NCBI GenBank assembly: GCA_964355645.1
Contig: CAYHDI010000001.1
Span: 92,897-156,896 of the forward strand
From: an uncultured Candidatus Saccharibacteria bacterium
GTDB taxonomy: Bacteria; Patescibacteriota; Minisyncoccia; Phycocordibacterales; Zambryskibacteraceae
Direction: 5' to 3'
Length of the DNA stretch: 64,000 bases
The position numbers were made by a program, and so were the translations under genes. Of this stretch, positions 1 through 52,033 are shown piece by piece (within the stretch, counting starts at the first letter, position 1; each line of letters starts with the position of its first letter). Under the pieces are notes generated by a model. The model searched no databases and was not told the origin of the DNA. It saw nothing but the letters and a program-made list of their open reading frames with translations.

Positions 1-1003
1 TGTCACTTGAAATAGATTGGAAACAATCCGTGAGATATCGATGATTCACATTAATAACAAGGTCTGCTCCTTCTATCACCGCCTCAACGGCATAGACATT
101 TTCTCCAACATTATTGTTTTTTGATTCAATTTCAAAGAGTTTTTTAGAAGGAGCGAGGGTTATTCTGAGTTGATTGAGGGAGTCTGAAAAAACAAGGGCT
201 GTTTTCAGAGAGTTAATTAAATCTTGCTTGAGGACAACGGCTTTGGATGTGGTTTCTTTCGGAATAATTTGTTTGTAGTCCGGGAAAACCCCATCAATAA
301 TCCTTGATGTAAGATAAATTCCTCCTCCTCGAAAAGCAATTTGGTTTTCTTCTATAGAAAGAGAGATATCCTCGTTGATTGAATCGAAAACTCGAACGAT
401 TTCCGCTGCGTTTTTTTGAGGAATTAAAACTTGTTTAAAGTTTGGAATTTTTTTTGTTTTTATTTTCTTTTCAGCTAGTCTAAATGAGTCTGTGGATACA
501 AATACGAGATGGTCTTCCTCCCGAGTTAAATAAATGGAAGAGAGCTCAGGCTTCATACTTCCAGTAGAAGCCGCGTACATGACCGATTTGAGGCCAATAA
601 CAAGGTCTTTTGATGGTAGAGAGAAATTCTCTTCGTCTTTTATTTCGGGAATGATTGGAAAATCTTCAGTTGATAAGGTTTTTATGGATGTTTCCGTACT
701 ACTTGTCTCAATGTGTAGGGTTTGGTCTTTAGTATTTAGAATAATACTTTTATCTTTGGTTAATGAATTAAGGAAAGAATTCAAAACATGAGCTGGAACA
801 ACTATTTCCCCAGGTTCAACAATTTTTACCGGGATTGAAATTAAGATTCCTAAATCAAGATTAGTGGCCCGAATGTTTAGAGTATTTTTTTTCGCTTCCA
901 AATAAAGTCCAGAAAGAATCGGGAGGGTTGGATTTCTACCCGCAATCTTTTCCGCTCTCCCCACCGCATCCGCGAGCCTGTCTCTAATGCATTCTATTTT
1001 CAT
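1..1003 (-). CDS. dnaN: DNA polymerase III beta sliding clamp, 3'-partial (runs off window start)
   Basis: Minus-strand translation from the ATG at 1003 gives MKIECIRDRLADAVGRAEKIAGRNPTLPILSGLYLEAKKNTLNIRATNLDLGI..., which matches the DnaN N-terminus. It sits downstream of dnaA in the classic arrangement. It is absent from the ORF track because there is no stop codon within the window. Confidence 0.8.
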   Translation of the reverse strand, partial: MKIECIRDRLADAVGRAEKIAGRNPTLPILSGLYLEAKKNTLNIRATNLDLGILISIPVKIVEPGEIVVPAHVLNSFLNSLTKDKSIILNTKDQTLHIETSSTETSIKTLSTEDFPIIPEIKDEENFSLPSKDLVIGLKSVMYAASTGSMKPELSSIYLTREEDHLVFVSTDSFRLAEKKIKTKKIPNFKQVLIPQKNAAEIVRVFDSINEDISLSIEENQIAFRGGGIYLTSRIIDGVFPDYKQIIPKETTSKAVVLKQDLINSLKTALVFSDSLNQLRITLAPSKKLFEIESKNNNVGENVYAVEAVIEGADLVINVNHRYLTDCFQSISSD

Positions 1004-3914: not shown

Positions 3915-5127
3915 GCGCCCACAAAGTCAAATCATTTTTATTCATGAAGAAGAGATAATCTTCATTAGGAGAAAGGCTTGGATTAATCAGATCTATATCT
4001 GTTCCAGAGTCTTTTTTAGGTTCAAAAAGAATTTCGCTTGTGTAGGTGATAATACTAAATCTCCAAATTTGATCAGAAAAATGAGTTATCCCTTGATACC
4101 AATTATCAGGTTCACCAGGACCAATAGTTGTGCTTGGAGTTCCACAATACAAAACCCCCGCACTCTTTTTGCTCCAAATACATTTATCTGCAAACGTTGT
4201 GGGCAAAATTTGGTCGCTTAAGCCATCAGACAAGTTTTTAAATTCAAACACAGTCTTACCATTTGAAACATAGGAGTAAACAACCCTCTTCCCGTCCGAG
4301 CTTTCTGAAAAGGTCAAAGCGTTTAATGGCCCAATAATTTTAGTTAATCTTCCTGTCGTTGGATTTAAATTATAAGCGAAACCCGAGACGGCTGAACTGG
4401 CTTTAGTAACCAAACTAACAATATTTGTATTTGGCCAAGACATTCTCCAATCAGTGAATCCAGATGAAAGGAGATTTGTCCCCTTGCTTCCATCAAAGGC
4501 GGAGGAGACAATCGATCCAGAATTTCCTAAAACATAAACCAACAGATTAGTTGGTCCCACAGACACATCTTTGATATCACCGATTAGATTTGTGGCTTTT
4601 ATTGTATACAAACTATCGGTAGTTGTTGCTTTGGGGGCGGTGAGGGACAAAGAAATGTTTTCAACTGTGTCGCTATCCCCTTTCAAATCTCTCAAAAGAA
4701 CTGATGAGCCATCGTTCTTGAAATAAGCCTCTTGGATTTTTGGAAAAGTGGTATTTGTGATTTTAGTTTTTTCTAATGTAATCGGGCTGACATCATAAAT
4801 ATGACCAGTAGCCCGATCTACGTAGCGGACGACCGTCTCCCCAGACTTTTTGTTGAAGGCAACCATTCCGGCGACAGGTTGTTCAGAAACACGAAAGAGT
4901 TTAGCTATGGGTTTCCCTTGAGCATCAAGGCCTGTAGGAGTGTTTTGACCGGTTGAAGTATTTGCTCCGATAGGAATATTTTCTCCACCTTGTCCAAAAG
5001 GTGAACCGGTTCCAGTTGTTGGAATTGCCGGTGTGGTCGGTTTGCTAAAAAAGAAATACCAACTTAAAAAACTAACAATTATTACCGCGACGATTCCGAT
5101 TATTATTACTGTAGTTTTTCTGGTCAT
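3901..5127 (-). CDS. hypothetical membrane-anchored extracytoplasmic protein (first gene of T4SS-like cluster, reading direction reversed)
   Basis: N-terminal TM helix (VIIIGIVAVIIVSFLSWYFFF) followed by a long beta-rich domain. No recognisable motif. Confidence 0.5.
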   Translation of the reverse strand: MTRKTTVIIIGIVAVIIVSFLSWYFFFSKPTTPAIPTTGTGSPFGQGGENIPIGANTSTGQNTPTGLDAQGKPIAKLFRVSEQPVAGMVAFNKKSGETVVRYVDRATGHIYDVSPITLEKTKITNTTFPKIQEAYFKNDGSSVLLRDLKGDSDTVENISLSLTAPKATTTDSLYTIKATNLIGDIKDVSVGPTNLLVYVLGNSGSIVSSAFDGSKGTNLLSSGFTDWRMSWPNTNIVSLVTKASSAVSGFAYNLNPTTGRLTKIIGPLNALTFSESSDGKRVVYSYVSNGKTVFEFKNLSDGLSDQILPTTFADKCIWSKKSAGVLYCGTPSTTIGPGEPDNWYQGITHFSDQIWRFSIITYTSEILFEPKKDSGTDIDLINPSLSPNEDYLFFMNKNDLTLWALKLN

Positions 5128-5130
5128 AAA

Positions 5131-6105
5131 TTAGTAGCTTATATGGAAACTAGGAGCAGTATTATATTTATAGTCCGATGATTTTGAAACGTCCCTCAGA
5201 ATAGCTGGATCTACTCCAGCTGCTGACAAATCATTGTAATTAGCAGTATTGACTTCAAAAATAACCCCAAGATCATTTGTTCTTATAACTTTAGCAAAGG
5301 CATTGATTTCATCTGTCTGCGCTCTAGTTGGTTTCCCCGAAACATACTTATTTGTAGTAAGGTTGGTGTCTATACAACTCCCAATACTATGACAGTTAGC
5401 AGAATGTGGGCTTGTAGTTGGCCACGCTTCCGTGACTTGCCATCCAAATACTATTAGAGAAGCTGCCACTTTTAATTTTTGAAGTAGACCAGCGTTCATT
5501 GATGAATTATTTTTGAAAGACAATCCCTGAATTCCCAAACCGCTTGTGCAATTTATACAAGTACACGGTGCCTTGGTACCGTTTTTGTCTACTACACAAC
5601 TTGAGGTCGCGTTAATTCCCAATGTTTCGGGAGTAGTTGATCCAAGATCTGTACTTATCGGCGCTCCGACTCTTAACCCAGCAATATCAAATTTAAAGGT
5701 AACTAAGTTTGGATTGAGAGTATACAAAATGATGTAAGCACTTATGGCGAGTAGAAGCCCAATGAGAGCATTGTTGATAGTTTCCTTCGCATCACTTTTC
5801 TTTTCGAAAGCATCAGAAGTCATATATTGAATACCGCCCATCATGATTCGAAGAACCGCCAGGGCTCCAGCAATGCCTATGATTAGTTTGATTACCGCGG
5901 GGATGTAAGTGTTTATGTTTACCGGAGTCTTCGCGTTTTCAGAAATTCCAGGAAGTGCAGTCAACGGGCAATAGCCGTCTGGTCCAGGAACACAGGTGGT
6001 TTGTGCATAAATCGGCGCAACGTTCACTAAAAACATAAGAGTGATGAAAGTGAATGCGAAGAATTTAAAAAAAGATTTCATATTATAAATTATTTTGAAC
6101 ACCAA
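5131..6105 (-). CDS. VirB2/TrbC-like T4SS pilin with ~170-aa Cys-rich C-terminal extension
   Basis: Signal peptide, then two hydrophobic helices separated by a short charged loop (IPAVIKLIIGIAGALAVLRIMMGGIQYMTSDAFEKKSDAKETINNALIGLLLAISAYIILY), the hallmark of TrbC/VirB2 pilins. There is no type IV prepilin G|F motif. The Cys-rich tail is unusual. Confidence 0.5.
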   Translation of the reverse strand: MVFKIIYNMKSFFKFFAFTFITLMFLVNVAPIYAQTTCVPGPDGYCPLTALPGISENAKTPVNINTYIPAVIKLIIGIAGALAVLRIMMGGIQYMTSDAFEKKSDAKETINNALIGLLLAISAYIILYTLNPNLVTFKFDIAGLRVGAPISTDLGSTTPETLGINATSSCVVDKNGTKAPCTCINCTSGLGIQGLSFKNNSSMNAGLLQKLKVAASLIVFGWQVTEAWPTTSPHSANCHSIGSCIDTNLTTNKYVSGKPTRAQTDEINAFAKVIRTNDLGVIFEVNTANYNDLSAAGVDPAILRDVSKSSDYKYNTAPSFHISY

Positions 6106-28934: not shown

Positions 28935-29318
28935 TTATATCTTCCTACAATTTTTCTTTATCCAAATTTCTAATTTTTTGATATTTATTTCCTTTGTTGC
29001 TACCTCGAGCACCACGAATGCAACTTCTTTGTTGGAAGCTGTCAGTTCATATTTGTTTTCGTGCAAAAAACGAGCCACGACTGTTAGGGCTGTGCGTTTG
29101 TTTCCGTCTATGAAGACGTGATAATTTACCAAAGCTTCCAGAAGCACCGCCGCCTTTTGAAAAACATTTTTATAAAGTTCTTTTCCTGCAAACATTGCCT
29201 GTGGTTTATGAACCGCGGCTTGAAGTAGTCCGAGGTCTCGGATCCCATGACTGCCTCCGATTTCATCTATGAGCAAAGCATGAACAATGAGAACCTCTTG
29301 GGCCGTTAAGTATTTCAT
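28935..29318 (-). CDS. doc: Doc (death-on-curing) Fic-family toxin
   Basis: Fic motif HVFIDGNKRTA. Start taken at MKYLTAQEV (29318) rather than the ORF-track upstream Met. Confidence 0.8.
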   Translation of the reverse strand: MKYLTAQEVLIVHALLIDEIGGSHGIRDLGLLQAAVHKPQAMFAGKELYKNVFQKAAVLLEALVNYHVFIDGNKRTALTVVARFLHENKYELTASNKEVAFVVLEVATKEINIKKLEIWIKKNCRKI

Positions 29319-29319
29319 A

Positions 29320-29550
29320 TTACTCGCGCGCCAGTGTTTCCAAGGCGTCCTTGTATTTGTGAATAAACTTTTTTGTCCAATCAACAAGCTCCGAAGAGAT
29401 TTCCACGGAAGGTTCAATAGTCATTCGTTTATGCGCGGTGTCCAAAGAGACGTTTACCCTGTCTCCAATTCGAAGACCCAAATTCTCGAGAGATTTCTTG
29501 GGGAGAGTGACAGCTGCGGAAGAACCTACTTGAAGTATTTTTTGGACCAT
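29320..29550 (-). CDS. AbrB/MazE/SpoVT-fold antitoxin (Phd-like partner of Doc)
   Basis: VGSSAAVTLPKKSLENLGLRIGDRV has the swapped-hairpin AbrB signature. Its stop is 2 nt upstream of the doc start. Confidence 0.7.
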   Translation of the reverse strand: MVQKILQVGSSAAVTLPKKSLENLGLRIGDRVNVSLDTAHKRMTIEPSVEISSELVDWTKKFIHKYKDALETLARE

Positions 29551-29802
29551 ATATTTTGTATTATAACGTTATTATAATCATCTGTATTGTCCTGTCAAGA
29601 GATTTCCCCCACTTAATATAATGGAGGATTAAGGAGGGGTTATAACTCAAATTTGACAAATTATTGTGTTTAGGTATATAATACAAAGGTAAATATGAGT
29701 AGTAGAAGTTCGCCCTTGGGCGGACTTCTTTCGTACCATTGGAGCTAACGGTTACAAATAATCTACCTCCAACGGTATAAATAGAAAATAATATATAAAA
29801 AC

Positions 29803-31008
29803 ATGTTCGACCTTAAAGTCATAAATTCAGTGCTCGGAGAACTCGAAGAAGTACGAGGTATTCCTCGTGAGAAAATCTTGGAGGCTATTGAAGCTGCCTT
29901 GGCCACGGCGTACAAGAAGGAATACGGCAAGCGCGGACAGATTATCCGCACTACTTTCGATGTGAAGACCGGAGAAGTCAATTTCTTTCAAGTGAAGGAA
30001 GTGGTAGACAAATCTACGGTAATTTTTGAAGACGAAGCTGAAGAATTAGAAAATGAAACTCCGGAATCAGCCGAAGTTGATGCGGACGAACGCTCGATTT
30101 ATGACCCAGAAAAACATATTCTCCTTGAAGATGCGAAGAAAATTAAGCGTGATGCAATCGTGGGCGAAGAAATTATTTTCCCTATTGAATCGAAGGGTGA
30201 CTACGGTCGTATCGCGGCTCAAACAGCGAAGCAAGTTATCATGCAGAAAATTCGTGAAGCAGAGAAGGCCCACCTCGTGACTGAATTCTCTTCGCGCGAA
30301 GGTACGATTGTTTCCGGCACGGTTCAACGTATTGAACGCGGGAATATTTTCATCGACCTTGGTCGGGCTCCCGGACTCTTGCCTTATGAGGAACAAATCC
30401 CCGGCGAACATTTCGCCCAAGGTGAGCGTGTTCGGGCTTATCTCTATAGAGTAGAAGAATCTCCTCGCGGAGTTTTCCTTCGACTTTCTCGTTCTCATCC
30501 AAAATTCCTCGAGAAACTTTTTGAAGCAGAAACTCCAGAACTTCAAAACGGTTCGGTTATTATTAAAGCTATCGCGCGCGAGGCGGGTTATCGTTCGAAA
30601 ATCGCCGCGGAGGCCAAGGATAATCACATTGATCCTGTTGGTTCGCTCGTTGGACAACGCGGAGTACGTGTCTCTACAGTCATGAGTGAACTTCGGGGAG
30701 AAAAAATTGATGTTATTGAATGGAATGAAGATCCAAAGAAGTTTATTGAAGAAGCCTTGTCTCCAGCGAAAGTGATGAGCATTGAACTTAAAGAAGATGA
30801 AACCGGCCTGCCCACCGGACAGGGACAGGTAAACAAAACGGCTGTAGTAAACGTTTCTGAAGATCAACAATCACTGGCCATAGGGAAGGGCGGGCAAAAC
30901 GTTCGCCTCGCGGCCAAACTCACTGGTTGGAAAATTGATATTCAGTCAGCGAAGGGCGAAGAACTCGCTTCTGCCGAAGCAGAAACAGTCAATTCGGAAA
31001 CCAAGTAA
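29803..31008 (+). CDS. nusA: transcription termination/antitermination factor NusA
   Basis: N-terminal domain (MFDLKVINSVLGELEEVRGIPREKILEAIEAAL), S1 domain and two KH domains. Confidence 0.9.
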   Translation: MFDLKVINSVLGELEEVRGIPREKILEAIEAALATAYKKEYGKRGQIIRTTFDVKTGEVNFFQVKEVVDKSTVIFEDEAEELENETPESAEVDADERSIYDPEKHILLEDAKKIKRDAIVGEEIIFPIESKGDYGRIAAQTAKQVIMQKIREAEKAHLVTEFSSREGTIVSGTVQRIERGNIFIDLGRAPGLLPYEEQIPGEHFAQGERVRAYLYRVEESPRGVFLRLSRSHPKFLEKLFEAETPELQNGSVIIKAIAREAGYRSKIAAEAKDNHIDPVGSLVGQRGVRVSTVMSELRGEKIDVIEWNEDPKKFIEEALSPAKVMSIELKEDETGLPTGQGQVNKTAVVNVSEDQQSLAIGKGGQNVRLAAKLTGWKIDIQSAKGEELASAEAETVNSETK

Positions 31009-39549: not shown

Positions 39550-39589
39550 TTCTGGGCTACCCCGTAGTGAACTTTGTTCTACTTCGGGG

Positions 39590-39660
39590 TGCGGGATGGG
39601 GGAATCGGACTCCCGACTACAGTTTGGAAAACTGTCGTTTTACCACTAAACTAATCCCGC
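39590..39660 (-). tRNA. tRNA-Gly (anticodon TCC)
   Basis: Hand-folded cloverleaf: acceptor GCGGGAT/ATCCCGC, anticodon arm ACAGT-TTTCCAA-ACTGT, T-loop TCCGATT. One A-C mismatch in the T-stem. Confidence 0.65.
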
Positions 39661-39672
39661 ATTGGTATTCTT

Positions 39673-39743
39673 TCGGGGCGCCGAGAATCGAACTCGGACC
39701 ACATGCTCCCAAAGCAAGTATACTACCACTATACTACGCCCCG
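39673..39743 (-). tRNA. tRNA-Pro (anticodon TGG)
   Basis: Acceptor CGGGGCG/CGCCCCG, anticodon loop TTTGGGA, T-arm CCGAG-TTCGATT-CTCGG. Confidence 0.6.
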
Positions 39744-39757
39744 TTTATATTCATCTT

Positions 39758-39828
39758 TCGGGCTGCCGGGACTCGAACCCGGGTCTCACGAACCCGAATC
39801 GTGAATAATACCTCTATAATACAGCCCG
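39758..39828 (-). tRNA. tRNA-Pro (anticodon CGG)
   Basis: Acceptor CGGGCTG/CAGCCCG, anticodon arm CACGA-TTCGGGT-TCGTG, T-arm CCGGG-TTCGAGT-CCCGG. The D-arm is atypical. Confidence 0.55.
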
Positions 39829-39916
39829 TAGGAATTTATCCTAGCATGGAGAAGGTTATTTACCAAAGAAAAATAAACTCGATTTTTTTCGTAAGATAAG
39901 ATATTATCATCTAACT

Positions 39917-39987
39917 GCGGGTATGGTTCAGTGGTAGAACAACTGGTTGCCAATCAGTAGATGGGAGTCCGATTCTCCCTACCCGCA
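39917..39987 (+). tRNA. tRNA-Gly (anticodon GCC)
   Basis: GCGGGTA...TGGTTCAGTGGTAGAACA...ACTGG-TTGCCAA-TCAGT...GGGAG-TCCGATT-CTCCC-TACCCGC-A folds as a clean cloverleaf. Confidence 0.7.
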
Positions 39988-40013
39988 CTGAGAAAAATAT
40001 ACTAATATCGATT

Positions 40014-40087
40014 GGTGCCCCCGCTAGGACTCGAACCTAGAACGACTGCTTCGAAGGCAGTTATGATATCCATTTCACTACGGGAGC
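40014..40087 (-). tRNA. tRNA-Arg (anticodon TCG), CCA encoded
   Basis: Acceptor GCTCCCG/CGGGGGC with a 3' ACCA, anticodon arm ACTGC-CTTCGAA-GCAGT, T-arm CTAGG-TTCGAGT-CCTAG. Confidence 0.7.
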
Positions 40088-42371: not shown

Positions 42372-43016
42372 ATGGAATCAAACAATCAATTTTCTCCAAT
42401 TCCAAACCCAGTCCCCCAACCAATCATCGCCGAAGGCGGGACCTCGCCAAAGGCGATGGCTCCTTCATATACACCTACGCCCGCATCATCTCCCGCGCCT
42501 CAAATGAAACCAGAGATGAAATCTATTTCGACTGGGACGAGTAGTATGTCGAGTCCAATTTGGCTTGGAGTGGCTGTGATAATTATTCTCATCGTCGCTT
42601 ATTTCTTGTGGAGTTCTTCAGGCAATAAAGTCAACAAAACAACTTTTAGTTCTGAAAATGTAGTAGTGAAAACAACCAACGTAGCTGTAGCGACTGAAGC
42701 AGAAAAGTTGCCGGCCGGATTCCTCAAATCAATTCCTGTGGAGACAACCTACATCACCGAAAGCACCACTCTGACTTATCCAGAGAGAAAAGCCGTTTTG
42801 TATTCCGTATCTTATTTCTCAACCAAACAACAACAAGAAATTTTTACCATATACGGAAATTTCTTAAAGGAAAATGGATACAAAATCACTAACACCAACA
42901 AATCGGCGAGTTATATGATGTATCAAGCAACGAAAGATAATAATGATATCACCGTGGTCATCACTCCTCAACCAGACCGAATAATGGTTCAAGTCAGCTA
43001 CGTGGTGAGAGGGTAA
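42372..43016 (+). CDS. membrane-anchored hypothetical protein
   Basis: Pro-rich N-terminus and one TM (IWLGVAVIIILIVAYFLW). Followed by the terminator AACAGCCCAAAATAGGGCTGTTTTAA. Confidence 0.45.
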   Translation: MESNNQFSPIPNPVPQPIIAEGGTSPKAMAPSYTPTPASSPAPQMKPEMKSISTGTSSMSSPIWLGVAVIIILIVAYFLWSSSGNKVNKTTFSSENVVVKTTNVAVATEAEKLPAGFLKSIPVETTYITESTTLTYPERKAVLYSVSYFSTKQQQEIFTIYGNFLKENGYKITNTNKSASYMMYQATKDNNDITVVITPQPDRIMVQVSYVVRG

Positions 43017-43099: not shown

Positions 43100-44300
43100 C
43101 CTGTGCACAGGAAAGATTGAATTAAGCAACATCATATCAGACACTCTTTAATCTTTTCCTTAGGTGTTAAGCCGTTAATTCCCAAATGTTCACGTTCATT
43201 GTTATACCAATCAATATAGACTTGTCTCTTTAAATCAAGATCCTCAAGGGTTTTGAATGATACTTGATTCCAGAATTCTTCTCTATCTGTCCGGTGGCTT
43301 CTTTCCACCTTGCCATTCTGAGATGGTTTGCCCGGTTGAATCAGATAATGAATGATTTTGTTTTTAAGACAAGTTTGATCAAACAAATGTTTCTTTCTTG
43401 CACCCAGGCTCTTGTATGCTCCAACATATCTATTAGTGAAGATGGAACCGTTATCTGTCTTAACCCCCAGGACTTTGAATGGGGCGTGTTTAATCACTTC
43501 ATCCAGAAATCTCGAAGCATTTAATGAATGTTGTTCCGAATAAAACTTCAAGAATCTCCATCTGGTGCAGCAATCTATAGCCGTGAACTGAAAGATCCAT
43601 TTATCTTTATATCTCTTCATTAAAGCCACATCTATCTCTATAAGTTCTCCAGGAACCAAACTCTTCGGTTTCCAGATATCAGTTCTAGGTATTCGTCTCT
43701 TGGTTCGTACTAACTTCTCACGTTTCAAGACTTTATGTATTCCTCTGGCACTCATCACAGTTCCTTCTTTCAAGAGTCTGAATCTAATTTTTTGAGCACA
43801 GAAATTGTGTTCACTTCTAATTTCTCGTATTCTTTGAACTATATGTATTGGAGTGGTATGAGGATGAGAGTGATGAGCTCTGGATTTCTCCTTGAGACCA
43901 GTTAATCCATTCTTGAGATAACTCCTCTTCCATCTATGCAAAGTATCTCGGCAGAACCCAGAACGTTGGCTTAACTCTGTGATTGATAAATTTCCTTCAA
44001 AATGAAGCTTGAGCCAACGTTCCCGTTCGCTGGCAATCAATATATCTGTTTTTCTTATCATCTTAACCATAGTTTTACACTGTCTGAGATGATGGTACAC
44101 AATACCATTTACACTTGCTTTATTTTCAATTAGTGGTAGTTTAACAATCAGAGCGGTTCCCTTATTCAGGAGTTCAGATGACCAAATCTCAAGAGAATTG
44201 TCATGATGAAGATATTGGCAAACTTGGTCAGAATCCATTTGCTGTAGCAGATGATCCGCCGGATTCTGATCAGATTCTCAAGCAACTCATGGTCGATTAC
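43100..44300. mobile_element. IS481-family insertion sequence (ends not resolved by eye)
   Basis: Single full-length transposase ORF. Terminal inverted repeats could not be defined confidently. Confidence 0.5.
43132..44238 (-). CDS. IS481-family DDE transposase
   Basis: N-terminal HTH (LSITELSQRSGFCRDTLHRWKRSY) and rve integrase core (KTDNGSIF...IQPGKPSQNGKVERSHRT...EREHLGINGLTP). Confidence 0.8.
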   Translation of the reverse strand: MDSDQVCQYLHHDNSLEIWSSELLNKGTALIVKLPLIENKASVNGIVYHHLRQCKTMVKMIRKTDILIASERERWLKLHFEGNLSITELSQRSGFCRDTLHRWKRSYLKNGLTGLKEKSRAHHSHPHTTPIHIVQRIREIRSEHNFCAQKIRFRLLKEGTVMSARGIHKVLKREKLVRTKRRIPRTDIWKPKSLVPGELIEIDVALMKRYKDKWIFQFTAIDCCTRWRFLKFYSEQHSLNASRFLDEVIKHAPFKVLGVKTDNGSIFTNRYVGAYKSLGARKKHLFDQTCLKNKIIHYLIQPGKPSQNGKVERSHRTDREEFWNQVSFKTLEDLDLKRQVYIDWYNNEREHLGINGLTPKEKIKECLI

Positions 44301-44312
44301 TAGAGGTTCCGT

Positions 44313-45602
44313 ATGAACCTCTTTTTTGTTAGTATGTCTGTATATATGAAATCTTTGACCAAATTTGGAGTAGAATTTCATCACGAAGTTTTAAGGAATG
44401 GGGTAAATCTTTTCTTGTTCAAAAGGAAGGGCATGCCTATTTATATAAGGGCCACTTTTTTTGCTGGTTCGCGTTTCGATTCAATCCACGGTACGGCACA
44501 TTTCTATGAACACATGCTCGTAGCTGGTACAAAAAAATTTCCCTCAAAAAATTTAATTGCAGACTATATTCAAAAAGTTGGAGGAGAATTTGGAGCGAGT
44601 ACCAGTAATACAATTTTGAAATTCAATGTAGAAATACCCGAGGCTAAGGATTTGGAGACAGGAATAGAAATTATGAGAGAGTGCCTGGTCAACTCGCTTT
44701 TTGATCCCAAGACTATCGAAACCGAAAGAGGCTCGATTATTTCTGAACTTAATGCGAAAAAAACAAACCCAAACGAATATGTTTTTGAAGTATTTTCTAG
44801 AATCGCCTTTCAAGACACGGCTCTTGAGAACAGTGTTCTGGGTACAGAAGCTGAGGTTAAGACAATTAAAAAAGACGATCTTTTAAATTTTGGATCCAAG
44901 TTTATACATTCAGGCAATCTCGCTTTTGTTGCCAGTGGAGATATCAATATTGATGAATTAAAAACAGCACTCGAAAGTATTCATATTCCAGAAGGAAAAA
45001 AATTTGAAGTAGAAAACCAGATACCAACAATAAAAACCCGAAATTCAGAGATTGAATTTTACTCTGGAGTTAAACAGCTACAAGTAATTTTTGGCTGCCG
45101 TACATCCATTGAAACATTTAAGGAATATTGTGCTTTAAGAGTTTTAAACAATGTTCTTGGGGGCGGGAGGGGTTCTCGGTTGATAACCAAACTTCGTTAT
45201 GAAAATGGTTTGGTATATTCAGTCTCAAGTAATATTCTTGAATCTGCTGATTGGGGAATGTTCAGAATAAGGTTATCTTGTGATAAGGATAATTTTAAAC
45301 TGGCGAAGCAGTTAATTTTAGATGAATTCGATAATTTAAAACAGAACAATATTACTACAGAAGAATTGGAGAACAACAAATCTAAAATCTCGAAAGGCTC
45401 AATTCGAGATTTGCAAACATCGATTTCTTGGGTTAATAATCACGAAACAGATTCTATTTTTAACCCAGAAGCTTTAAATACTATTGAAGACCATATTAAA
45501 ATGATAGAAAACCTGACGTTGGATGATATAAGTATGGTGATAAAAAAATATCTAAGAGAAGAAAACTTTTATACCGCTATTTGTGGAGATTATAAAAAGT
45601 AG
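44313..45602 (+). CDS. M16-family (pitrilysin/insulinase-like) zinc peptidase
   Basis: Inverted zinc motif HFYEH with a downstream Glu, and the two-domain M16 architecture. Confidence 0.7.
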   Translation: MNLFFVSMSVYMKSLTKFGVEFHHEVLRNGVNLFLFKRKGMPIYIRATFFAGSRFDSIHGTAHFYEHMLVAGTKKFPSKNLIADYIQKVGGEFGASTSNTILKFNVEIPEAKDLETGIEIMRECLVNSLFDPKTIETERGSIISELNAKKTNPNEYVFEVFSRIAFQDTALENSVLGTEAEVKTIKKDDLLNFGSKFIHSGNLAFVASGDINIDELKTALESIHIPEGKKFEVENQIPTIKTRNSEIEFYSGVKQLQVIFGCRTSIETFKEYCALRVLNNVLGGGRGSRLITKLRYENGLVYSVSSNILESADWGMFRIRLSCDKDNFKLAKQLILDEFDNLKQNNITTEELENNKSKISKGSIRDLQTSISWVNNHETDSIFNPEALNTIEDHIKMIENLTLDDISMVIKKYLREENFYTAICGDYKK

Positions 45603-45654
45603 AACCCCCCAGCTTACGCCAAGGGGTTCGACAATACCGCTGACCGCAGCTACT

Positions 45655-45756
45655 TTACGACGCCGGGGAATCAGCGTCGGAATCCTCGCTGTAGTCATCG
45701 CTGCTGACGTCATCGACGTCCGCATCGTTGGCGCTGTCGCCATCGTCTGCCATCAT
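45655..45756 (-). CDS. 33-aa highly acidic Asp/Ser-rich peptide in a GC-rich segment
   Basis: MMADDGDSANDADVDDVSSDDYSEDSDADSPAS. SD-like GAGGTG 4 nt upstream. Promoter-like TTGACA-N15-TATAAT on the minus strand at about 45845-45875. Not in the ORF track (<60 aa). Confidence 0.35.
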   Translation of the reverse strand: MMADDGDSANDADVDDVSSDDYSEDSDADSPAS

Positions 45757-45895
45757 GATACACCTCTCGAGAGGATTGGGCAGTTTTCCACGCTTCCCTG
45801 ATGTGGGGAGATCGCAGAGGGAGCAAAGATCACTCCTACTTTCAGATTATACCCGTATGGCTTTTTGTCAATATCCAACACGCGGGCCCTTTTTG

Positions 45896-46147
45896 TTATT
45901 TAATTTTTTCTATCTCTTTTGGTTTAATCAATTTTATATCAATAATTTGTTTAGTTTTAATATCAAGATAATCAACGACGGTATTATTCATGGCGTTAAA
46001 ACCTATACGAAAAGTTTTTTCATTTTCCTTCATTAATACCCCAACACATTTATACTTATTTTTATCGGCATCAAGCGCGGTCAACTCAATCACAATATTA
46101 TTTTTTTTGTTTTCTGGGCTGAATTTTGGAATAGGTTTTGCTTTCAT
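45896..46147 (-). CDS. hypothetical small protein (very AT-rich)
   Basis: 83-aa ORF with no motif. Confidence 0.35.
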   Translation of the reverse strand: MKAKPIPKFSPENKKNNIVIELTALDADKNKYKCVGVLMKENEKTFRIGFNAMNNTVVDYLDIKTKQIIDIKLIKPKEIEKIK

Positions 46148-46153
46148 AATTAA

Positions 46154-46645
46154 TTAAATAATTTTTATTTCAGTAATAAACGATTTCGGTATCATATAAT
46201 ATTTTGGTTTTTTCTGTGGATGATTTTTAATTGGTAATGGATGTGTTTTAATGGTTTCCGGATTTTTTAATACTAAATAAGAATTTGTTGCCTTATATAA
46301 AATACCCTCGGAGTACATAATCGAACAATCCCTCTTGGGCATATTTGCAATATAAACAATATCTCGCCATACAACGGATATATTCGACCCGATTTTAATT
46401 TTCTGTAGCCCTTGAATTTCAAAGTTTTTGTTTAAAGAAGTCAGCGCATTTGCTGGAATTATTAATCCTTTAATTATTTGTTTGTTATCTTTGTTTTTAG
46501 ATATTTGTTTTATGAATTCAATGGTTATGTTTTTCTTGCTTTTTCTCATATACCCATATGCTTCATGAATAGACAGTTTTGTAGGTAAATTCTTATTATA
46601 AAAATAAGATGCGTCAATGTATTTTATGTTAGATATTTTTTCCAT
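46154..46645 (-). CDS. hypothetical protein (start trimmed to MEKISNIKY; the ORF-track N-terminal 78 aa are read-through of a GC-rich insert)
   Basis: Composition switches sharply at 46650. The AT-rich part forms a coherent 164-aa ORF. Confidence 0.4.
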   Translation of the reverse strand: MEKISNIKYIDASYFYNKNLPTKLSIHEAYGYMRKSKKNITIEFIKQISKNKDNKQIIKGLIIPANALTSLNKNFEIQGLQKIKIGSNISVVWRDIVYIANMPKRDCSIMYSEGILYKATNSYLVLKNPETIKTHPLPIKNHPQKKPKYYMIPKSFITEIKII

Positions 46646-46700
46646 ATACTTTAATAATAAACCCGGGGAGGATGATAATCTATCCTCCCCGGTTGTGCTG

Positions 46701-46901
46701 TTACTTCTTGGACCCGAAGACGGAATCCCAGAAGCTTGTAGCGCGACTTCCAGATTCGTCGTCGCGACTGAACGATTGGCTGTTCTTCTCTGAGTTCCCC
46801 CGTTCGAACACGCCTGCCTCGGTGGCATCATCTTGTGCCTGGTGCTCTGCCGCCACAGCTTTGCTCGAAGAATCGCCACTGTCGCTTGAGTATTTGTTCA
46901 C
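46701..46901 (-). CDS. 66-aa acidic Ser/Asp-rich protein in a GC-rich segment
   Basis: GTG start preceded by AAAAGGAGG at an 8-nt spacing, and a minus-strand TTGAAA-N17-TATAAT promoter at about 46985-47015. Confidence 0.45.
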   Translation of the reverse strand: MNKYSSDSGDSSSKAVAAEHQAQDDATEAGVFERGNSEKNSQSFSRDDESGSRATSFWDSVFGSKK

Positions 46902-47157
46902 AGTTCTCGCCTCCTTTTCGAGCGGTTAAAGACAAGGCTGGCTGTCATCCGACTACCAGCATTATTTACATTCTATATGCAATTATAAGACAATAATTGA
47001 CTTGTTTCAAGCTTGTATAAGTTGTTTTACCCATCCAGCATGCGGGCCCTTTTTGTTTGAGAATTTTATTTAATGGTTAAGTTTCGCGATTGGTTTAAGT
47101 TATATGATTACTGTACAAGTTGTTGAAATTAATGTCTATTTATATTAAAATCATTTT

Positions 47158-48855
47158 ATGGAAAACCCCGATACATACGATGATTTTTCAATTAACAGGA
47201 AGGAGAATCCTGAATTACAAAAAAAGATTGCGGAGGCCGTTTTTCTGTCTGAGGCCTTATTAACACCTGAAGAATTAGAGAGAAAATATCCCGAGAGGGA
47301 ATTACCTCCAGAAGCGATGATCACAAGAGTTGGACCCAGTCCAACAGGATTTATGCATATCGGGGGAATATATATGGCCCTTATTTCTGAAAGATTTGCC
47401 CACCAAACGGATGGTATTTATTATCTTAGAATAGAGGATACGGATAGAAAAAGAGAAGTAGATGGGGCACGAAAAGTCATCGTTGATTCACTTCACAATT
47501 TTGGACTTGACCCGGATGAGGGAGAAAAGTTTGATGGTTTAGAGCATGGAAACTATGGACCGTATTGTCAATCAGAGCGAAGGGAAGTATATGGGAGTTA
47601 TATTAAGTCACTTCTTACAAGAGGTGACGCATACTTGTGTTTTTGTAGTGAGGAGGAGCTGGAAGCTATGCAAAAAATGCAGGAAACCTTAGGTGTAAGG
47701 AGAGGATATTGTGGGCCGTGGGCTAAATGGCGGGATGCATCTCAAGAAAAAGTTTTAGATGAATTATCAAGAGGAACTCCATATGTTGTCAGGTTTAGGT
47801 CCCAAGGAGACCCTAATAAAATCTTTACCCACCATGATTTACTGAAAGGCGATGTTATTTTATCAGAAAATGATTTGGATGCTGTGATAATGAAATCAGA
47901 TGGTTTGCCCACATATCATCTTGCTCATGCTGTTGATGATCATCTCATGAGAACAAGCCATGTTTTAAGAGGTGACGAGTGGTTGCCTTCCGTTCCCCTT
48001 CACTACGAATTGTTTAAGACCCTAGGATTCGATCTCCCAGAATATGCTCATATATCTCCGATAAATAAATTGGATAATGGGAATAAAAGGAAACTTTCGA
48101 AGAGAAAGGATCCAGAGGCCAATGTTTCTTTCTATCAACAGAAAGGTTATCCTCCCGAGGCTGTTTTGGAATACCTTTTAAATCTTGCTAATTCTGATTT
48201 TGAAGATTGGAGAAAAGAAAATCCAAACACGAGTTATAAAGAGTTTGAACTCAAAATGAGCAGGTTGGCCAATAGTAACGGGCCATTGTTTGATGAGAGT
48301 AAATTAAGGGATACAGCAAAAGAAATTATCTCAAAAATGTCTGCGGATCAAATATTCGAAAATGTTTTAAATTGGGCAGAAATTAATGATTATCAATTTT
48401 TTACTTTATTAAATAATGACAAGGAATATTGGACCAGTATTTTTGGTATTGAAAGAGGGGGTAGTAATTCAAGAAAAGATATTTCAGCATGGTCTGATGT
48501 GCGTGGATTTTACGAATTCTTTGATAAAGGAAAATATCAACTGCCAAATTGGGGGAATTTCGTCTCAATTTTTAACACCAAAGAAATAAAAGAGATTTTT
48601 AGTGAATACCTTGCCATTTATGATGAGAACGATTCCAAGGTGGAATGGTTAGAGAAAATTAGACAATTATGTATCAAATATAATTTGGCGCCAAATTTAA
48701 AAACATACAAAGCAGACAAAACTAATTTTAGAGGCCATATAGGAGATCTTACTCAGTGTATACGCTTTGCAATTACTGGAAGAACTCAATCGCCTGATAT
48801 TTTTGAGATAATAAAAATATTAGGCAAAAGTGAGGTTTTTCGAAGACTTGCATAA
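47158..48855 (+). CDS. gltX: glutamyl-tRNA synthetase
   Basis: Class I HIGH motif (PSPTGFMHIGGIYMAL), KMSKS-like KLSKRK, and an anticodon-binding C-domain over 565 aa. Confidence 0.85.
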   Translation: MENPDTYDDFSINRKENPELQKKIAEAVFLSEALLTPEELERKYPERELPPEAMITRVGPSPTGFMHIGGIYMALISERFAHQTDGIYYLRIEDTDRKREVDGARKVIVDSLHNFGLDPDEGEKFDGLEHGNYGPYCQSERREVYGSYIKSLLTRGDAYLCFCSEEELEAMQKMQETLGVRRGYCGPWAKWRDASQEKVLDELSRGTPYVVRFRSQGDPNKIFTHHDLLKGDVILSENDLDAVIMKSDGLPTYHLAHAVDDHLMRTSHVLRGDEWLPSVPLHYELFKTLGFDLPEYAHISPINKLDNGNKRKLSKRKDPEANVSFYQQKGYPPEAVLEYLLNLANSDFEDWRKENPNTSYKEFELKMSRLANSNGPLFDESKLRDTAKEIISKMSADQIFENVLNWAEINDYQFFTLLNNDKEYWTSIFGIERGGSNSRKDISAWSDVRGFYEFFDKGKYQLPNWGNFVSIFNTKEIKEIFSEYLAIYDENDSKVEWLEKIRQLCIKYNLAPNLKTYKADKTNFRGHIGDLTQCIRFAITGRTQSPDIFEIIKILGKSEVFRRLA

Positions 48856-48867
48856 ACGACAAACAGA

Positions 48868-49818
48868 ATGGACAGCTTGTTTTTTAAGAAAAAAGAGGTT
48901 GCCGAATCTTTAAAAAGACTTTCTAAAAACATTATTTCATATTATGTTGATTATAAACTAATGTCTAAGAATGCCATTCATGAACTCAACACAAAGACAA
49001 AGAATAGGCAATTTCAAAATAATATTATTGGCGCGTTCACACTGAGCACTTGTTTGCGGCAAGAAATTTATTCATTTGGTTCCAAAAAAAGTGTTGATGA
49101 TGAAAATTATTACGCATGTTTGAGTGGAAAATTAGCACTAAGAAGATTAATTACTATTGCCTGCGGTCTTCACTCAGAAATTATTGGTGAGAAAGAAATA
49201 TTTTTACAATTAGGTAATTCAATACTTTTTGCTTACGATCAGTCATTAATATCAAAGATGTTATGTAGCGATTTATTGAATATCTTATATATTGCGGATG
49301 AATTAAAGAAGAAATTTAGTATACAAACAGATGAGAACTACTCAACTGTCGGTGTTTCAATTATGGCAGGTTTTGCAAATTCTAATTCAACGTTATGTAT
49401 TATTGGTTCTGGATATATGGCTCATGTTTTTATTAAGAATTTCAAATCAATAGAGTATAAGAAAATAATATGGATTAGTCGGGACATAGACAGGCTTAAA
49501 AAAATAGTCGGTATTACAGGTGTTGACAAAGATAAAGTAGTTTACGTAGAAACAAAAGATGCAATTAAATATATACAAGAAGCGGATCTAATTTTTGCAG
49601 CTACAAATAATACTGATACCCCATATCGCCGTATGCTTTTCCCCAAAGCAAAAGCTATTATTGATGTTTCCTACCCGTCGCTTTTTTCTGAAGGTTGTAA
49701 CTCAAATTTTATTTCTATTCAAAACACATTTTTTGAAAAATTGATTAGTAAGCCGGTAGACAAAATATCAATACTCAAGGTTGAAAAGGCGATTGATAAG
49801 TTACTAAAAATTATATGA
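48868..49818 (+). CDS. glutamyl-tRNA reductase (HemA)-like protein, C-terminally truncated
   Basis: Block-wise alignment to E. coli HemA: FTLSTCLRQEIY vs VLSTCNRTELY (catalytic Cys retained); IACGLHSEIIGEKEIFLQ vs VASGLDSLVLGEPQILGQ; CIIGSGYMAHVF...IIWISRDIDRLK vs LLVGAGETIELV...MIIANRTRERAQ; EADLIFAATNN vs EADIIISSTAS; AIIDVSYPS vs LLVDIAVPRD. Lacks the ~100-aa dimerisation domain. Confidence 0.6.
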   Translation: MDSLFFKKKEVAESLKRLSKNIISYYVDYKLMSKNAIHELNTKTKNRQFQNNIIGAFTLSTCLRQEIYSFGSKKSVDDENYYACLSGKLALRRLITIACGLHSEIIGEKEIFLQLGNSILFAYDQSLISKMLCSDLLNILYIADELKKKFSIQTDENYSTVGVSIMAGFANSNSTLCIIGSGYMAHVFIKNFKSIEYKKIIWISRDIDRLKKIVGITGVDKDKVVYVETKDAIKYIQEADLIFAATNNTDTPYRRMLFPKAKAIIDVSYPSLFSEGCNSNFISIQNTFFEKLISKPVDKISILKVEKAIDKLLKII

Positions 49819-50477
49819 AAAAAGTGACCGATGCAAAGATTGTTGACCTTGTTGTAGATATGGTTCCCAAGACCAAGATAATTTTTATCACTGCCCAATA
49901 CGGGAAGTCAACAAGTGATGTTGATATCTATTGTGTTGCTGACGTTAGAAAATCATATGTTCACATTTTTTTAAAAAATGATCGTTTGTATGAAATTTTT
50001 ATTGATAGCATCAAAAATCTTAAGAAAAAAGCAAAAAATAAAGATGAGATAACTTTTTCATTTTTGCATAGAATGAGGTTGGTTTATGGTGACAAAACCG
50101 TTCATAATAATTTCAAGAATTTATTCCCAACAAGATATTCTATGCCCGAATACAGACTCCAGAAGTTAATATATCGAATTAAAGTTATTAGTTCGAAATA
50201 TACTTCCTCAAAAAATGATTTGTTGAGGAATTTTTTCCTAGGACAGCTTATTCAATATTTTATAATGTTGGAGTTTCATCTGAATGGTATATGGCCAGCA
50301 AGTCCTAAGAAATGGCTGGAACAACTTAGTCAAATGAATACGGCAACCTCTAAACAGTTAATAAGTTTGATTGCAAATAAAAACACAAATGTTGGCTCCC
50401 TTATATTAGAATACACCAAGAATTTTAAGGGGCTAGATTTGGAATATTTTACAACCAATCAAACATTAATTGTGTAA
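49815..50477 (+). CDS. putative nucleotidyltransferase-fold protein
   Basis: GKSTSDVDIYCVAD resembles the pol-beta NTase G-S...D-x-D signature. Start overlaps the hemA-like stop (ATGA). Confidence 0.4.
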   Translation: MKKVTDAKIVDLVVDMVPKTKIIFITAQYGKSTSDVDIYCVADVRKSYVHIFLKNDRLYEIFIDSIKNLKKKAKNKDEITFSFLHRMRLVYGDKTVHNNFKNLFPTRYSMPEYRLQKLIYRIKVISSKYTSSKNDLLRNFFLGQLIQYFIMLEFHLNGIWPASPKKWLEQLSQMNTATSKQLISLIANKNTNVGSLILEYTKNFKGLDLEYFTTNQTLIV

Positions 50478-50665: not shown

Positions 50666-52033
50666 TTACTGGCAAACGGTTTTTTCGAGAGCAAGTTTGA
50701 GCATGAACTCGCGCTGACCCTGATGTGCTTCCATGATCGAGCACCGAAGACCACCGTACTTCCTCTCGAGATCCCTCGTCTTGTACAGCATGAGAATGTA
50801 CAGGACGTCGTACTTGCTGGGATATCCGGGCACGAACCCGGTGCGATCATCAATGGTGAATCCCTCGCACTTCTGACCCTGAAGGCTTTGGAATCCGCAC
50901 CCGTGACCAACTCCAACGAAATGGAGCAGTTCATGGCGGAAACTTCCCGGATTCTTGCGCCAATCGTCGAGAGACATGGATACGACTAGACCTGCCCCAA
51001 GCTCTCCATTCCCTAGATAACTTACTCCACCTTGAGCTGGGATAGGAGCAATCTTTGAGGAGATGTATACATTCACGCCGTCTGTCGTCGTGACCTCGCT
51101 CTGATTTCCAGCACGAAGGTATTGACTACCGAAGTACTGGTTCAGAACGTCTGCAGCTGACCATGCCAGTGCCGAATCGGTCGGAGCGAATTGAGCATCG
51201 CCCAAATCGTTTCGGAGCGCATACGGCTGTGGGAGGGTCTTGTGAGTGGCGTTGTTGTAATACCACACACCATTCACAAGTTGACGAGGGTAGAACGATG
51301 AACCATCACTCCCCGCAATGTACGCCAAGCTGATGTCGAACGGTAGCCTTACGCCGGCATACACGCCCGAAGGAATGGTCATGCCGAGAGGCTCAACAAC
51401 GAGTACAAGAGTCTTCGTCATGTCCGCCTTCCGGATGGTTCCGTCGCACTTCCTCGCCGTGTACAACCGACTCGTCCCAGGCATCGCGTCAACAATGCAC
51501 GAAACAGAATCGGTATTCGCAAGCGCGGTCGGAAGAGTGAAACTTCCGTCCGATGACGTCACATCAACACTTGCAGTGTCGGCACCCTTGAAAAGAGTGA
51601 CACGTACACTCTTCGGTGTAGCCCAATCATTTGCCAGGTCGACAATCATTACTCGACCATTCACAACTGACTGTGGTACAGGAACGGGCTTGCAGTCACT
51701 CTTGGTATCTCCGCTCTTTACCGAATGTACCGTAGCACAAACAGTATAGAGTCCGGGCATCGCGGGTACTGTGCCACACGTAGCTGGGTTGCCATTCACC
51801 GTGCAGTCAGTCGTAACGCTTCCAACGTTTGAGGAAGCTTGGACTGAAATCACGATCAGAGGCATCGGGTATGCCTGCGTCACAGACGCCGACACATTCA
51901 CCGAAAGCGTTTCTTGCACCGGCGGGGGCGGAGGATTTCCATTCCCCGTCGGAGAACTGCCACACGCTGTGGCAATGAAAGAGATCACGGCCGCGCAAAC
52001 GGCCGTGGCGAAACCACGGATGATGCGCGACAT
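50666..52033 (-). CDS. secreted lipoprotein zinc metalloprotease (metzincin-like HExxHxxGxxH), GC-rich foreign gene
   Basis: Lipoprotein signal MSRIIRGFATAVCAAVISFIATAC|GSS and the motif HELLHFVGVGHG. GC is about 55-60% against ~33% in the flanks. It has its own promoter (TTGACA x2 ... TATGGT) and SD (CAGGAGG) at about 52040-52200. Confidence 0.6.
   Translation of the reverse strand: MSRIIRGFATAVCAAVISFIATACGSSPTGNGNPPPPPVQETLSVNVSASVTQAYPMPLIVISVQASSNVGSVTTDCTVNGNPATCGTVPAMPGLYTVCATVHSVKSGDTKSDCKPVPVPQSVVNGRVMIVDLANDWATPKSVRVTLFKGADTASVDVTSSDGSFTLPTALANTDSVSCIVDAMPGTSRLYTARKCDGTIRKADMTKTLVLVVEPLGMTIPSGVYAGVRLPFDISLAYIAGSDGSSFYPRQLVNGVWYYNNATHKTLPQPYALRNDLGDAQFAPTDSALAWSAADVLNQYFGSQYLRAGNQSEVTTTDGVNVYISSKIAPIPAQGGVSYLGNGELGAGLVVSMSLDDWRKNPGSFRHELLHFVGVGHGCGFQSLQGQKCEGFTIDDRTGFVPGYPSKYDVLYILMLYKTRDLERKYGGLRCSIMEAHQGQREFMLKLALEKTVCQ

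Follow-up and report, generated by a model that had tools for sequence, protein, structure and literature searches.

Hydrophilins and other small hydrophilic stress proteins, such as those of the YciG/YjbJ type in Escherichia coli and the KGG-repeat protein GsiB in Bacillus subtilis, constitute a physico-chemical class and not a homology family, with a glycine content above 6% and a mean hydrophilicity above 1 as the defining properties. Bacteria of the candidate phyla radiation (CPR) have tiny genomes in which many genes are unannotated. Here, we analyze a 64,000-nucleotide stretch of DNA (the window) from a contig assigned to Candidatus Saccharibacteria, which comes from a groundwater metagenome of the Hainich aquifer, well H52, and is present in identical copies on other metagenome contigs (up to 189–201 kb). 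On its minus strand, from position 47057 to 45873, lies a module of ~1.16 kb comprising a gene for a 66-amino-acid (aa) hydrophilic protein, denoted unit 2, a gene for a 163-aa protein and a gene for an 83-aa protein; a second small GC-rich unit, unit 1, is located next to it. The original prediction, made from the letters of the sequence, described the two units as paralogous genes for highly acidic small proteins on DNA of foreign composition, each behind a near-consensus promoter and an identical 16-mer. Its observations are largely correct, with the corrections given below, and its interpretation is only partly supported. On balance, we favor a reading in which unit 2 belongs to a conserved three-gene module with repeat-marked ends, and unit 1 is an orphan outside of it.

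The unit-2 protein resembles hydrophilins in being short, devoid of hydrophobic segments, and within both limits of the class (5 of 66 residues, or 7.6%, are glycine and the grand average of hydropathy is −1.19), which says nothing about its function. Similar to hydrophilin genes, unit 2 combines a strong promoter and a strong terminator with a predicted monocistronic mRNA. In contrast to them, it matches neither KGG nor CsbD nor any model of Pfam or NCBIfam at the sequence level, and it is associated with two specific partner genes, a link that classical hydrophilins lack. In terms of physical chemistry, the protein behaves like an abundant small protein of the hydrophilin type, an assignment that concerns compositional class only, and it is probably disordered. 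The elements of the module, in the direction of transcription, are the following:

47033–47057, minus-strand reading AACAAAAAGGGCCCGCATGCTGGAT: copy A of the direct repeat, outer module boundary on the small-gene side
46982–47010, minus strand: unit-2 promoter, with TTGAAA at 47010–47005, a 17-nt spacer and TATAAT at 46987–46982
46902–46975, minus strand: unit-2 5′ leader of ~74 nt, with the ribosome-binding site AAGGAGG at 46916–46910
46701–46901, minus strand: unit-2 coding sequence, 66 aa, GTG start, rich in Ser, Asp and Gly, hydrophilic
46653–46692, minus strand: unit-2 intrinsic terminator, an 11-bp stem (8 G–C pairs) followed by GTTTATTATT
46154–46645, minus strand: gene for the beta-rich 163-aa protein, the true extent of a 241-aa open reading frame (ORF)
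45896–46147, minus strand: gene for the 83-aa protein, the third of the module, its stop codon overlapping repeat copy B by 2 nt
45873–45897, minus-strand reading AACAAAAAGGGCCCGCGTGTTGGAT: copy B of the direct repeat, module boundary on the 83-aa side

Judged from the pattern of substitutions, unit 2 is a protein-coding gene under purifying selection. A protein search retrieved 7 homologues of 66–70 aa with 56–73% identity, each called as a stand-alone gene, and further copies were found in Candidatus Yonathbacteria and Paceibacterota genomes and on Minisyncoccota contigs, as well as in each related locus fetched, with family lengths of 66–71 aa; relatives of the genes studied here come from these same groups, which makes the source organism a CPR bacterium. 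Between two of the loci that were fetched for comparison and numbered with the prefix L, L009 and L007, the substitutions at codon positions 1/2/3 amount to 6/3/41, corresponding to 36 synonymous versus 9 non-synonymous codon changes, with 5/2/30 and 9/6/27 as further counts within the family, and relative to a sister strain of ~94% identity the changes are 1/6/14. The N-terminal two-thirds of the protein are conserved, and the C-terminal tail, which usually ends in FWDSIFGSKK, is more variable. Thus, the original prediction identified a real small-protein gene with strong expression signals, and its ORF was quoted correctly.

The same holds for the predicted TTGAAA-N17-TATAAT promoter, which has 11 of the 12 consensus positions; only six sites in the window, this one included, reach at least 11/12 at 16–18 nt spacing. 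Each homologue of the small gene is accompanied by a sigma-70-like promoter, a 65–90-nt leader, a GGAGG site and a terminator hairpin. A strong sigma-70-type promoter of its own would drive unit 2, the predicted mRNA being short, with an extended leader, a ribosome-binding site of consensus type and a strong terminator at its end. A 5′-leader RNA element common to the whole family was ruled out, as the leader sequences are conserved, and can be aligned, only inside sub-clades. In one such group, L009 (5885–5950) shares a leader hairpin (GCGAGTT...ATCAGGG..TCTTGAT..AACTCGC) with the equivalent regions of L010 and L021, where two pairs appear to have changed in a compensatory manner from A:T to G:C. 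Rfam searches at gathering and at permissive thresholds matched neither unit, the best sub-threshold hit having an E-value of 0.15, which is at chance level.

The distance from the end of the unit-2 terminator to the ATG of the 163-aa gene is only 7 nt, and gene callers have treated this junction inconsistently, reporting the second gene as 163, 224, 225 or 241 aa, or as an antisense ORF of 58 aa. The homologues of the downstream protein all start with M-x-K-I-x-N-I-K-Y, which corresponds to the ATG at 46645, and the part of ORF 46154–46879 upstream of it is a spurious N-terminal extension, as proposed originally. Unit 2 is thereby defined as a conserved, strongly signalled small-protein gene that had been mis-annotated here as a 224–241-aa fusion or as an antisense ORF. 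The start of the 163-aa gene lies 7–20 nt past the small-gene terminator without a ribosome-binding site (46645–46665 in the window; 7960–8003 in L011), and a TGTATAAT-like −10 box is present 13–17 nt before the ATG of this family in L007, L009, L010 and L021. This arrangement suggests that the 163-aa protein may be translated from a leaderless or near-leaderless mRNA or may be expressed by terminator read-through.

The order of the small gene, a 163–181-aa gene and a 77–85-aa gene is the same in L007, L008, L009, L011–14, L021 and L023, and an ~80-aa gene follows the ~165-aa gene in all complete loci fetched (L007, L008, L009, L011–14, L016–L023). The module is typical of CPR bacteria of the Paceibacterota/Minisyncoccota group. 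Given the invariant gene order, the small protein would act together with the ~165-aa and ~80-aa beta-rich proteins. Unit 2 is now linked to two uncharacterized partner families, of which the 163-aa family alone comprises 160 clusters among 50%-identity cluster representatives.

The C-terminal domain of the 163-aa protein carries the motifs W-R-D-I ... Y-(S/T)-E-G ... N-P-E-T ... N-H-P ... I-P-x-S and is predicted, with medium confidence, to adopt an Sm-like small barrel. It differs from Sm, LSm and Hfq proteins in that the identity is only 8–23% and there is no evidence for Sm1/Sm2 motifs, the comparison being based on a model with a predicted local distance difference test score (pLDDT) of 70 and on a very common fold. 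Many stand-alone proteins of ~80 aa (P0111–P0166), which are included in the 160 clusters, consist only of this C-terminal domain, with the pattern W-x-D-I ... Y-T-E-G ... N-P-E-T ... N-H-P ... Y-I-P-K-S-L-I, and represent an unannotated domain family with the same predicted barrel. The 83-aa protein was considered as a paralogue of this domain, which was rejected by an hhalign probability of 2% and by negative hidden Markov model searches of the ~80-aa stand-alone proteins; its own structure model is poor (pLDDT 48) and was set aside.

Database searches yielded little for any member of the locus. The unit-2 protein has no match in Pfam, NCBIfam, PADLOC or PHROGs, and the 163-aa and 83-aa proteins, as well as a neighboring 220-aa protein, have only non-significant family matches in these collections (E-values of 0.006 or worse). 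Searches of PDB sequences with the unit-2 and 163-aa profiles gave nothing meaningful, look-ups of the exact 33-aa, 66-aa and 241-aa products returned no record, and we found nothing relevant in the literature on small proteins of CPR bacteria. Neither family, that of the small protein or that of the 163-aa protein, was found in scans of viral contigs, nor was the repeat. The roles suggested originally, namely anti-defence, DNA mimicry, secretion, signalling or immunity, are therefore without support for either unit, as there is no match in the four collections, no signal peptide or hydrophobic segment and no occurrence on viral contigs. Ocr-like acidic DNA mimics are similar to unit 1 in its extreme acidity, but its 33-aa ORF is far shorter than such proteins, lies in neither a phage nor a defence context and has no match in PHROGs or PADLOC; unit 2 is dissimilar, its acidity being no more than mild (pI 4.7; 12 acidic versus 8 basic residues), and the description as highly acidic is appropriate for unit 1 alone, with 13 Asp/Glu and no Lys/Arg.

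The shared 16-mer turned out to be the core of a longer direct repeat of 25 nt, 23 of which are identical between the two copies (query form AAAAAGGGCCCGCNTGNTGGAT). The exact 16-mer occurs twice in the 64 kb, compared to 0.04 copies expected by chance, and the number remains two when mismatches are allowed; its correct positions are 45882–45897 and 47042–47057 instead of 45880–45895 and 47048–47063. The local alignment of the two copies has a score of 40, versus 19.2 ± 2.6 for shuffled sequences, and the flanks are not significantly similar, which also led us to reject the idea that the homology continues into the 3′ end of a further 83-aa gene, present as a relic. An alignment of the two units at the nucleotide level revealed no similarity outside the 25-mer, and the peptides score 31 against 29.5 ± 4.5 for shuffles (p = 0.37). 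Because the unit-1 peptide resembles unit 2 no more than shuffled sequences do, the two units cannot be demonstrated to be paralogues, contrary to the initial view, and unit 1 resembles unit 2 in composition only.

The two copies are 1160 bp apart and exactly bracket the three genes. The motif is found upstream of each promoter, as described, with 22 nt between copy A and the −35 box of unit 2 and 1 nt between copy B and that of unit 1; its positions coincide with the ends of the module and not with the two units. In the sister strain, represented by contigs L015 and L016, the repeats (in a 28-nt form) are located at the same two module ends, and each of them marks, at its outer edge, the point where homology with the window is lost, the similarity around copy A extending to 47059–47060. 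In L015, the match to the window begins within the 83-aa gene, ends where repeat A ends on its outer side, and gives way to a 41-aa ORF and a 201-aa gene; L011 has a homologue of the latter at a distance of 4 kb from the module. In L016, the 83-aa and 163-aa genes are matched and repeat B is present, beyond which a promoter and a radical S-adenosylmethionine (SAM)/SPASM gene take the place of unit 1. Thus, as L015 and L016 diverge past each repeat, the same repeats flank the same module and synteny breaks at both. In L011, the module lies directly between orthologues of window genes 42372–43016 and 50666–52033; relative to this arrangement, the window has 2.9 kb and 3.6 kb of extra genes abutting the two repeats, with an IS481 element, a 41-aa ORF, an M16 peptidase gene and unit 1 on one side, and gltX, a gene similar to glutamyl-tRNA reductase (GluTR) and the 220-aa gene on the other. 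Two more distant lineages have unrelated direct repeats around the module, one of 46 nt in L008 (93% identity, 1457-bp spacing) and one of 26 nt in L021 (25/26 identical, 1240-bp spacing).

A scan of a metagenome collection with a 22-nt core of the repeat, leaving two positions free, recovered only two short contigs of the sister strain, from well H43. In L008, the sequence after the first 46-nt copy (937–1045) contains a short gene remnant (..ITFLVHPRDLNNIFNNLLTA*) that resembles the N-terminus of the Shikimate_DH-family gene following the module in L007 (MKFAFIVHPRD...), which points to repeated rearrangement around the module. An empty-site comparison of L007 and L008 was uninformative, as the flanking genes are not orthologous, the acyltransferases being only 29% identical and the upstream genes unrelated.

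Considering that the same repeats flank the module in the sister strain while the DNA outside differs, and that unrelated repeats bracket it in two distant lineages, we interpret the repeat as a boundary of the module or a junction formed by recombination, and most likely not as an operator shared by paralogues; it would mark an insertion junction or a site of neighborhood recombination. The sister strains have the repeat in common but not the sequences around it, which does not agree with a simple target-site duplication. Compatible explanations would be an att-like core or recombination at the repeats. Integrated cassettes and islets, such as those with att-core repeats or integron arrays, likewise present a compact gene set between direct repeats (here 25–46 nt), and, as in those systems, strains differ in gene order exactly at the repeats and the repeat sequence is lineage-specific. 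In contrast to such systems, no integrase or recombinase was found in or beside the module, an IS481-family DDE transposase at a distance of 1.4 kb being all that is present; the repeats are direct and non-palindromic and have no attC-like fold; a scan for a tRNA or transfer-messenger RNA (tmRNA) target at the repeats was negative; and neither an excision product nor an empty site was observed. It is conceivable, although in our estimation unlikely, that the module is an undescribed recombinase-less mobile cassette of CPR bacteria, promoter-bearing and encoding a disordered small protein with two small beta-barrel proteins, which is inserted or exchanged at direct repeats of 25–46 bp, and that self-contained micro-genes, among them unit 1 and the 41-aa ORF, arise at this locus or are traded between strains, the locus being a hot spot of cassette shuffling. 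Should the repeats prove to be recombination sites, they would offer a simple system in which to examine the movement of accessory genes, classical mobile elements being few in these organisms. The most interesting lead from this work is that the placement of the module is bounded by repeats and varies between strains, at rearrangement breakpoints marked by long direct repeats; the present value of the work is that of a useful annotation correction and a modest lead, not of a mechanistic discovery.

Several observations weigh against a module with repeat-marked ends. Because no recombinase, empty site or circular junction was found, we can only infer mobility and the mechanism acting at the repeat. 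To account for the unshared flanks of the sister strains, the repeat must be a specific site of recombination, or rearrangements must have taken place there later. As a flanking repeat was not found in five lineages (L007, L009, L011, L018, L023), the bracketing is not universal. In L018, decay has left only the last ~20 codons of the small gene as a C-terminal remnant (4816–4965, ...SRDDDSGKSAMGFWGSIFGSKK*, terminator kept) beside intact partner genes, and the partnership is thus not obligatory; the same locus has an unrelated 51-aa acidic ORF (5763–5918), translationally coupled to the end of the 85-aa gene. The Sm-like assignment of the partner depends on the medium-confidence model and common fold mentioned above. 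Finally, the repeat precedes a promoter in all three contexts, those of unit 2, unit 1 and the L016 radical-SAM gene, at 22, 1 and ~33 nt from the −35 box. These variable distances differ by roughly whole helical turns (multiples of ~10.5 nt), with which a protein-binding site would also be compatible, no regulator having been identified; conservation between the sister strains is higher in the repeat than in the 14 nt that adjoin it inward on the side of unit 2, and the repeat contains the short palindromes GGGCCC and GCATGC.

The last group of observations would be expected if the 25-mer were an operator or activator site co-regulating two related small acidic protein genes with anti-defence, DNA-mimic, signalling or immunity functions. 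We regard this as improbable on the whole, given that the units share the 25-mer and nothing else, that the copies lie where a conserved module ends and where synteny breaks, that unrelated repeats bracket the module in other lineages, an arrangement not expected of a regulatory site, that none of the other lineages has the motif upstream of its unit-2 homologue, and that the genes have no defence or anti-defence match and no viral association. The 16-mer could also be regarded as the tail of a rho-independent terminator, since it ends in CCCTTTTTGTT on the plus strand. This we consider extremely improbable. No hairpin forms at the repeat on either strand, which excludes it as a terminator, the 56-nt segments around both copies reaching −0.9 to −5.8 kcal/mol, no better than shuffles (z = +0.4 to +2.0); no plus-strand gene ends there, the terminator scan does not include the 16-mer, and a generic terminator tail or dispersed repeat, the finding that was to speak against the original prediction, is at odds with two copies in 64 kb. 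A boundary of the conserved module accounts best for the position of the repeat. The remaining alternatives involve unit 1, which comprises the following elements:

45846–45871, minus strand: promoter-like hexamers, TTGACA at 45871–45866, a 14-nt spacer and TATAAT at 45851–45846
45768–45761, minus strand: ribosome-binding site GAGAGGTG, 4 nt upstream of the first ATG of the transcript
45655–45756, minus strand: 33-aa ORF with 13 Asp/Glu and no Lys/Arg, containing in-frame 15-nt repeats (repeat family D3) and starting with MMADDGDS
45592–45629, minus strand: intrinsic terminator, a 12-bp stem followed by TACTTTTTAT

Both hexamers are perfect; the spacer is 14 nt and not the 15 nt noted originally, outside the usual 16–18 nt, and the promoter scanner does not list the site. 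The terminator scan places the terminators of unit 1 and unit 2 at 45629–45602 and 46692–46663, respectively. The unit-1 terminator is oriented for the minus strand, as the plus strand has no T-run, and its U-tract extends over the final codons of the M16 peptidase gene, which is convergent. The 33-aa ORF was quoted correctly; gene callers do not report it, and no homologue of unit 1 was detected in the 22 fetched loci (blastn, tblastx), in plasmid and phage collections (blastn) or in the gene catalogue, so that only unit 2 of the two proposed acidic genes is conserved in relatives. Unit 1 would be a lineage-specific GC-rich micro-transcription unit just outside the module and unrelated to unit 2, which may represent a small RNA or an orphan gene of recent origin for a small protein. 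Translation of its ORF is, in our estimation, less likely than not, although with a substantial chance; the different gene that the sister strain has in this position also weighs against a real unit.

Alternatively, unit 1 may encode no protein, being either a small non-coding RNA or an inert leftover of a gene start that was rearranged, and its 33-codon ORF would be a by-product of GC-rich sequence. Base composition alone predicts 33 stop-free codons after an ATG in ~30% of cases at 58% GC, and the 14-nt hexamer spacing, the lack of homologues and of a gene call, the stable fold of the predicted 245-nt transcript (z = −3.1 relative to shuffles) and the position in a rearrangement hot spot 1.4 kb from an IS481-family element are all in line with this possibility. 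A good ribosome-binding site before the first ATG and the internal repeats that remain in frame are not, nor is the absence of an Rfam family; moreover, because the strong, strand-matched terminator follows the stop codon by 25 nt, unit 1 looks complete rather than truncated. The stable fold of the transcript also counts in favor of a real unit. On these grounds we hold the non-coding or remnant account to be a tentative one, less probable than not. A further possibility is that unit 2, unit 1 and the 41-aa ORF encode precursors of ribosomally synthesized and post-translationally modified peptides (RiPPs) that are processed by neighboring radical-SAM/SPASM and M16 peptidase enzymes. The short unit-2 peptide with an aromatic-rich C-terminal tail (FWDSVFGSKK) is reminiscent of precursors of the darobactin/dynobactin type, as are the conserved N-terminal two-thirds and variable tail of the family and the DynA-like/AnSME-like radical-SAM gene directly after the module in one sister strain (L016), with NCBIfam matches to peptide maturases; L009 has a radical-SAM/SPASM gene 2 kb upstream, and an M16 peptidase gene follows the 41-aa ORF in the window. 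Unlike in those systems, a maturase is associated with the module in 1–2 of about 9 lineages and is missing next to it in L007, L008, L011, L018, L021 and L023. Furthermore, the two radical-SAM proteins belong to different subfamilies (28% identity), the invariant partners are two beta-rich proteins of non-enzymatic appearance and not a maturase, and no precursor-peptide family was matched, all of which leaves little room for a RiPP function. We therefore retain unit 2 as the first gene of the conserved module and unit 1 as an orphan beside it.

The L016 radical-SAM/SPASM gene occupies positions 1–552 (minus strand) at the place of unit 1 and is preceded by promoter-like hexamers, TTGACA-N14-TATAGT. 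In NCBIfam, it is matched best by anaerobic sulfatase maturase and by the DynA and cyclophane-forming peptide maturases, with E-values of 1e-53 to 1e-36; the matches fall short of the curated cut-offs because the protein is partial. The 41-aa ORF is a third small acidic ORF (44178–44303, plus strand, MTKSQENCHDEDIGKLGQNPFAVADDPPDSDQILKQLMVDY, pI 4.1), with an AGGAG ribosome-binding site and its own terminator, and is located 9 nt upstream of the M16 peptidase gene. It is retained in L015 with many synonymous differences, there directly outside repeat A, and the first ~55 codons of the 368-aa transposase ORF, which are antisense to it, are probably spurious. Neither the 41-aa ORF nor the 455-aa protein encoded at 50.7–52.1 kb has a match in Pfam, NCBIfam, PADLOC or PHROGs.

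The two GC-rich islands that had drawn attention to the locus are present, with maxima of 0.61 at 45555–45894 (unit 1) and 0.59 at 46649–46975 (unit 2) against a local level of 0.27–0.37 (150-nt segments). The background is AT-rich locally, as claimed, the segment from 43 to 50.5 kb, which holds the IS481-family transposase gene, having 30–39% GC, and not over the window as a whole, the mean of which is 0.41; the sole further region above 0.58 is the 455-aa gene. The contrast is real at synonymous sites: GC content at third codon positions (GC3) is 0.74 in unit 1, 0.63 in unit 2 and 0.25–0.26 in the two partner genes, compared to 0.33–0.47 in typical genes of the window. A foreign origin, as proposed, is doubtful, and recent horizontal acquisition is disfavored as the source of the islands, since L011 has the same gene-by-gene GC3 mosaic, with 0.60 in the small gene, 0.25–0.27 in the partners and 0.62 in the neighboring lipoprotein gene. 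Because L011, with a 163-aa orthologue of 70% identity, shows the mosaic too, it is old; it is inherited within the clade and not a recent import, and is not seen in more distant lineages.

The immediate neighbors of the module in the window are gltX, the M16 peptidase gene and the GluTR-like gene. On the plus strand at 47158–50477, the 565-aa glutamyl-tRNA synthetase gene gltX is followed by the short GluTR-like (hemA-like, 316 aa) gene and the 220-aa gene, all of them very AT-rich (GC3 0.25–0.31). To our knowledge, CPR genomes are expected to lack haem synthesis, and a glutamyl-tRNA reductase-like gene is therefore unexpected. The 455-aa gene (50666–52033, minus strand; GC 0.54, GC3 0.57) encodes a predicted lipoprotein with an N-terminal lipobox-like motif (...ATACGSS) and no family match; its L011 orthologue, of 467 aa and GC3 0.62, lies directly downstream of the module.

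Two observations relate to the window at a greater distance. Two divergent promoters with a perfect 12/12 sigma-70 consensus are located at 29598 (minus strand) and 29653 (plus strand), preceding a 160-aa gene (28935–29417, minus strand) and a 401-aa gene (29803–31008, plus strand), respectively. Five tRNA genes (Gly-TCC, Pro-TGG, Pro-CGG, Gly-GCC and Arg-TCG) are clustered at 39587–40087.

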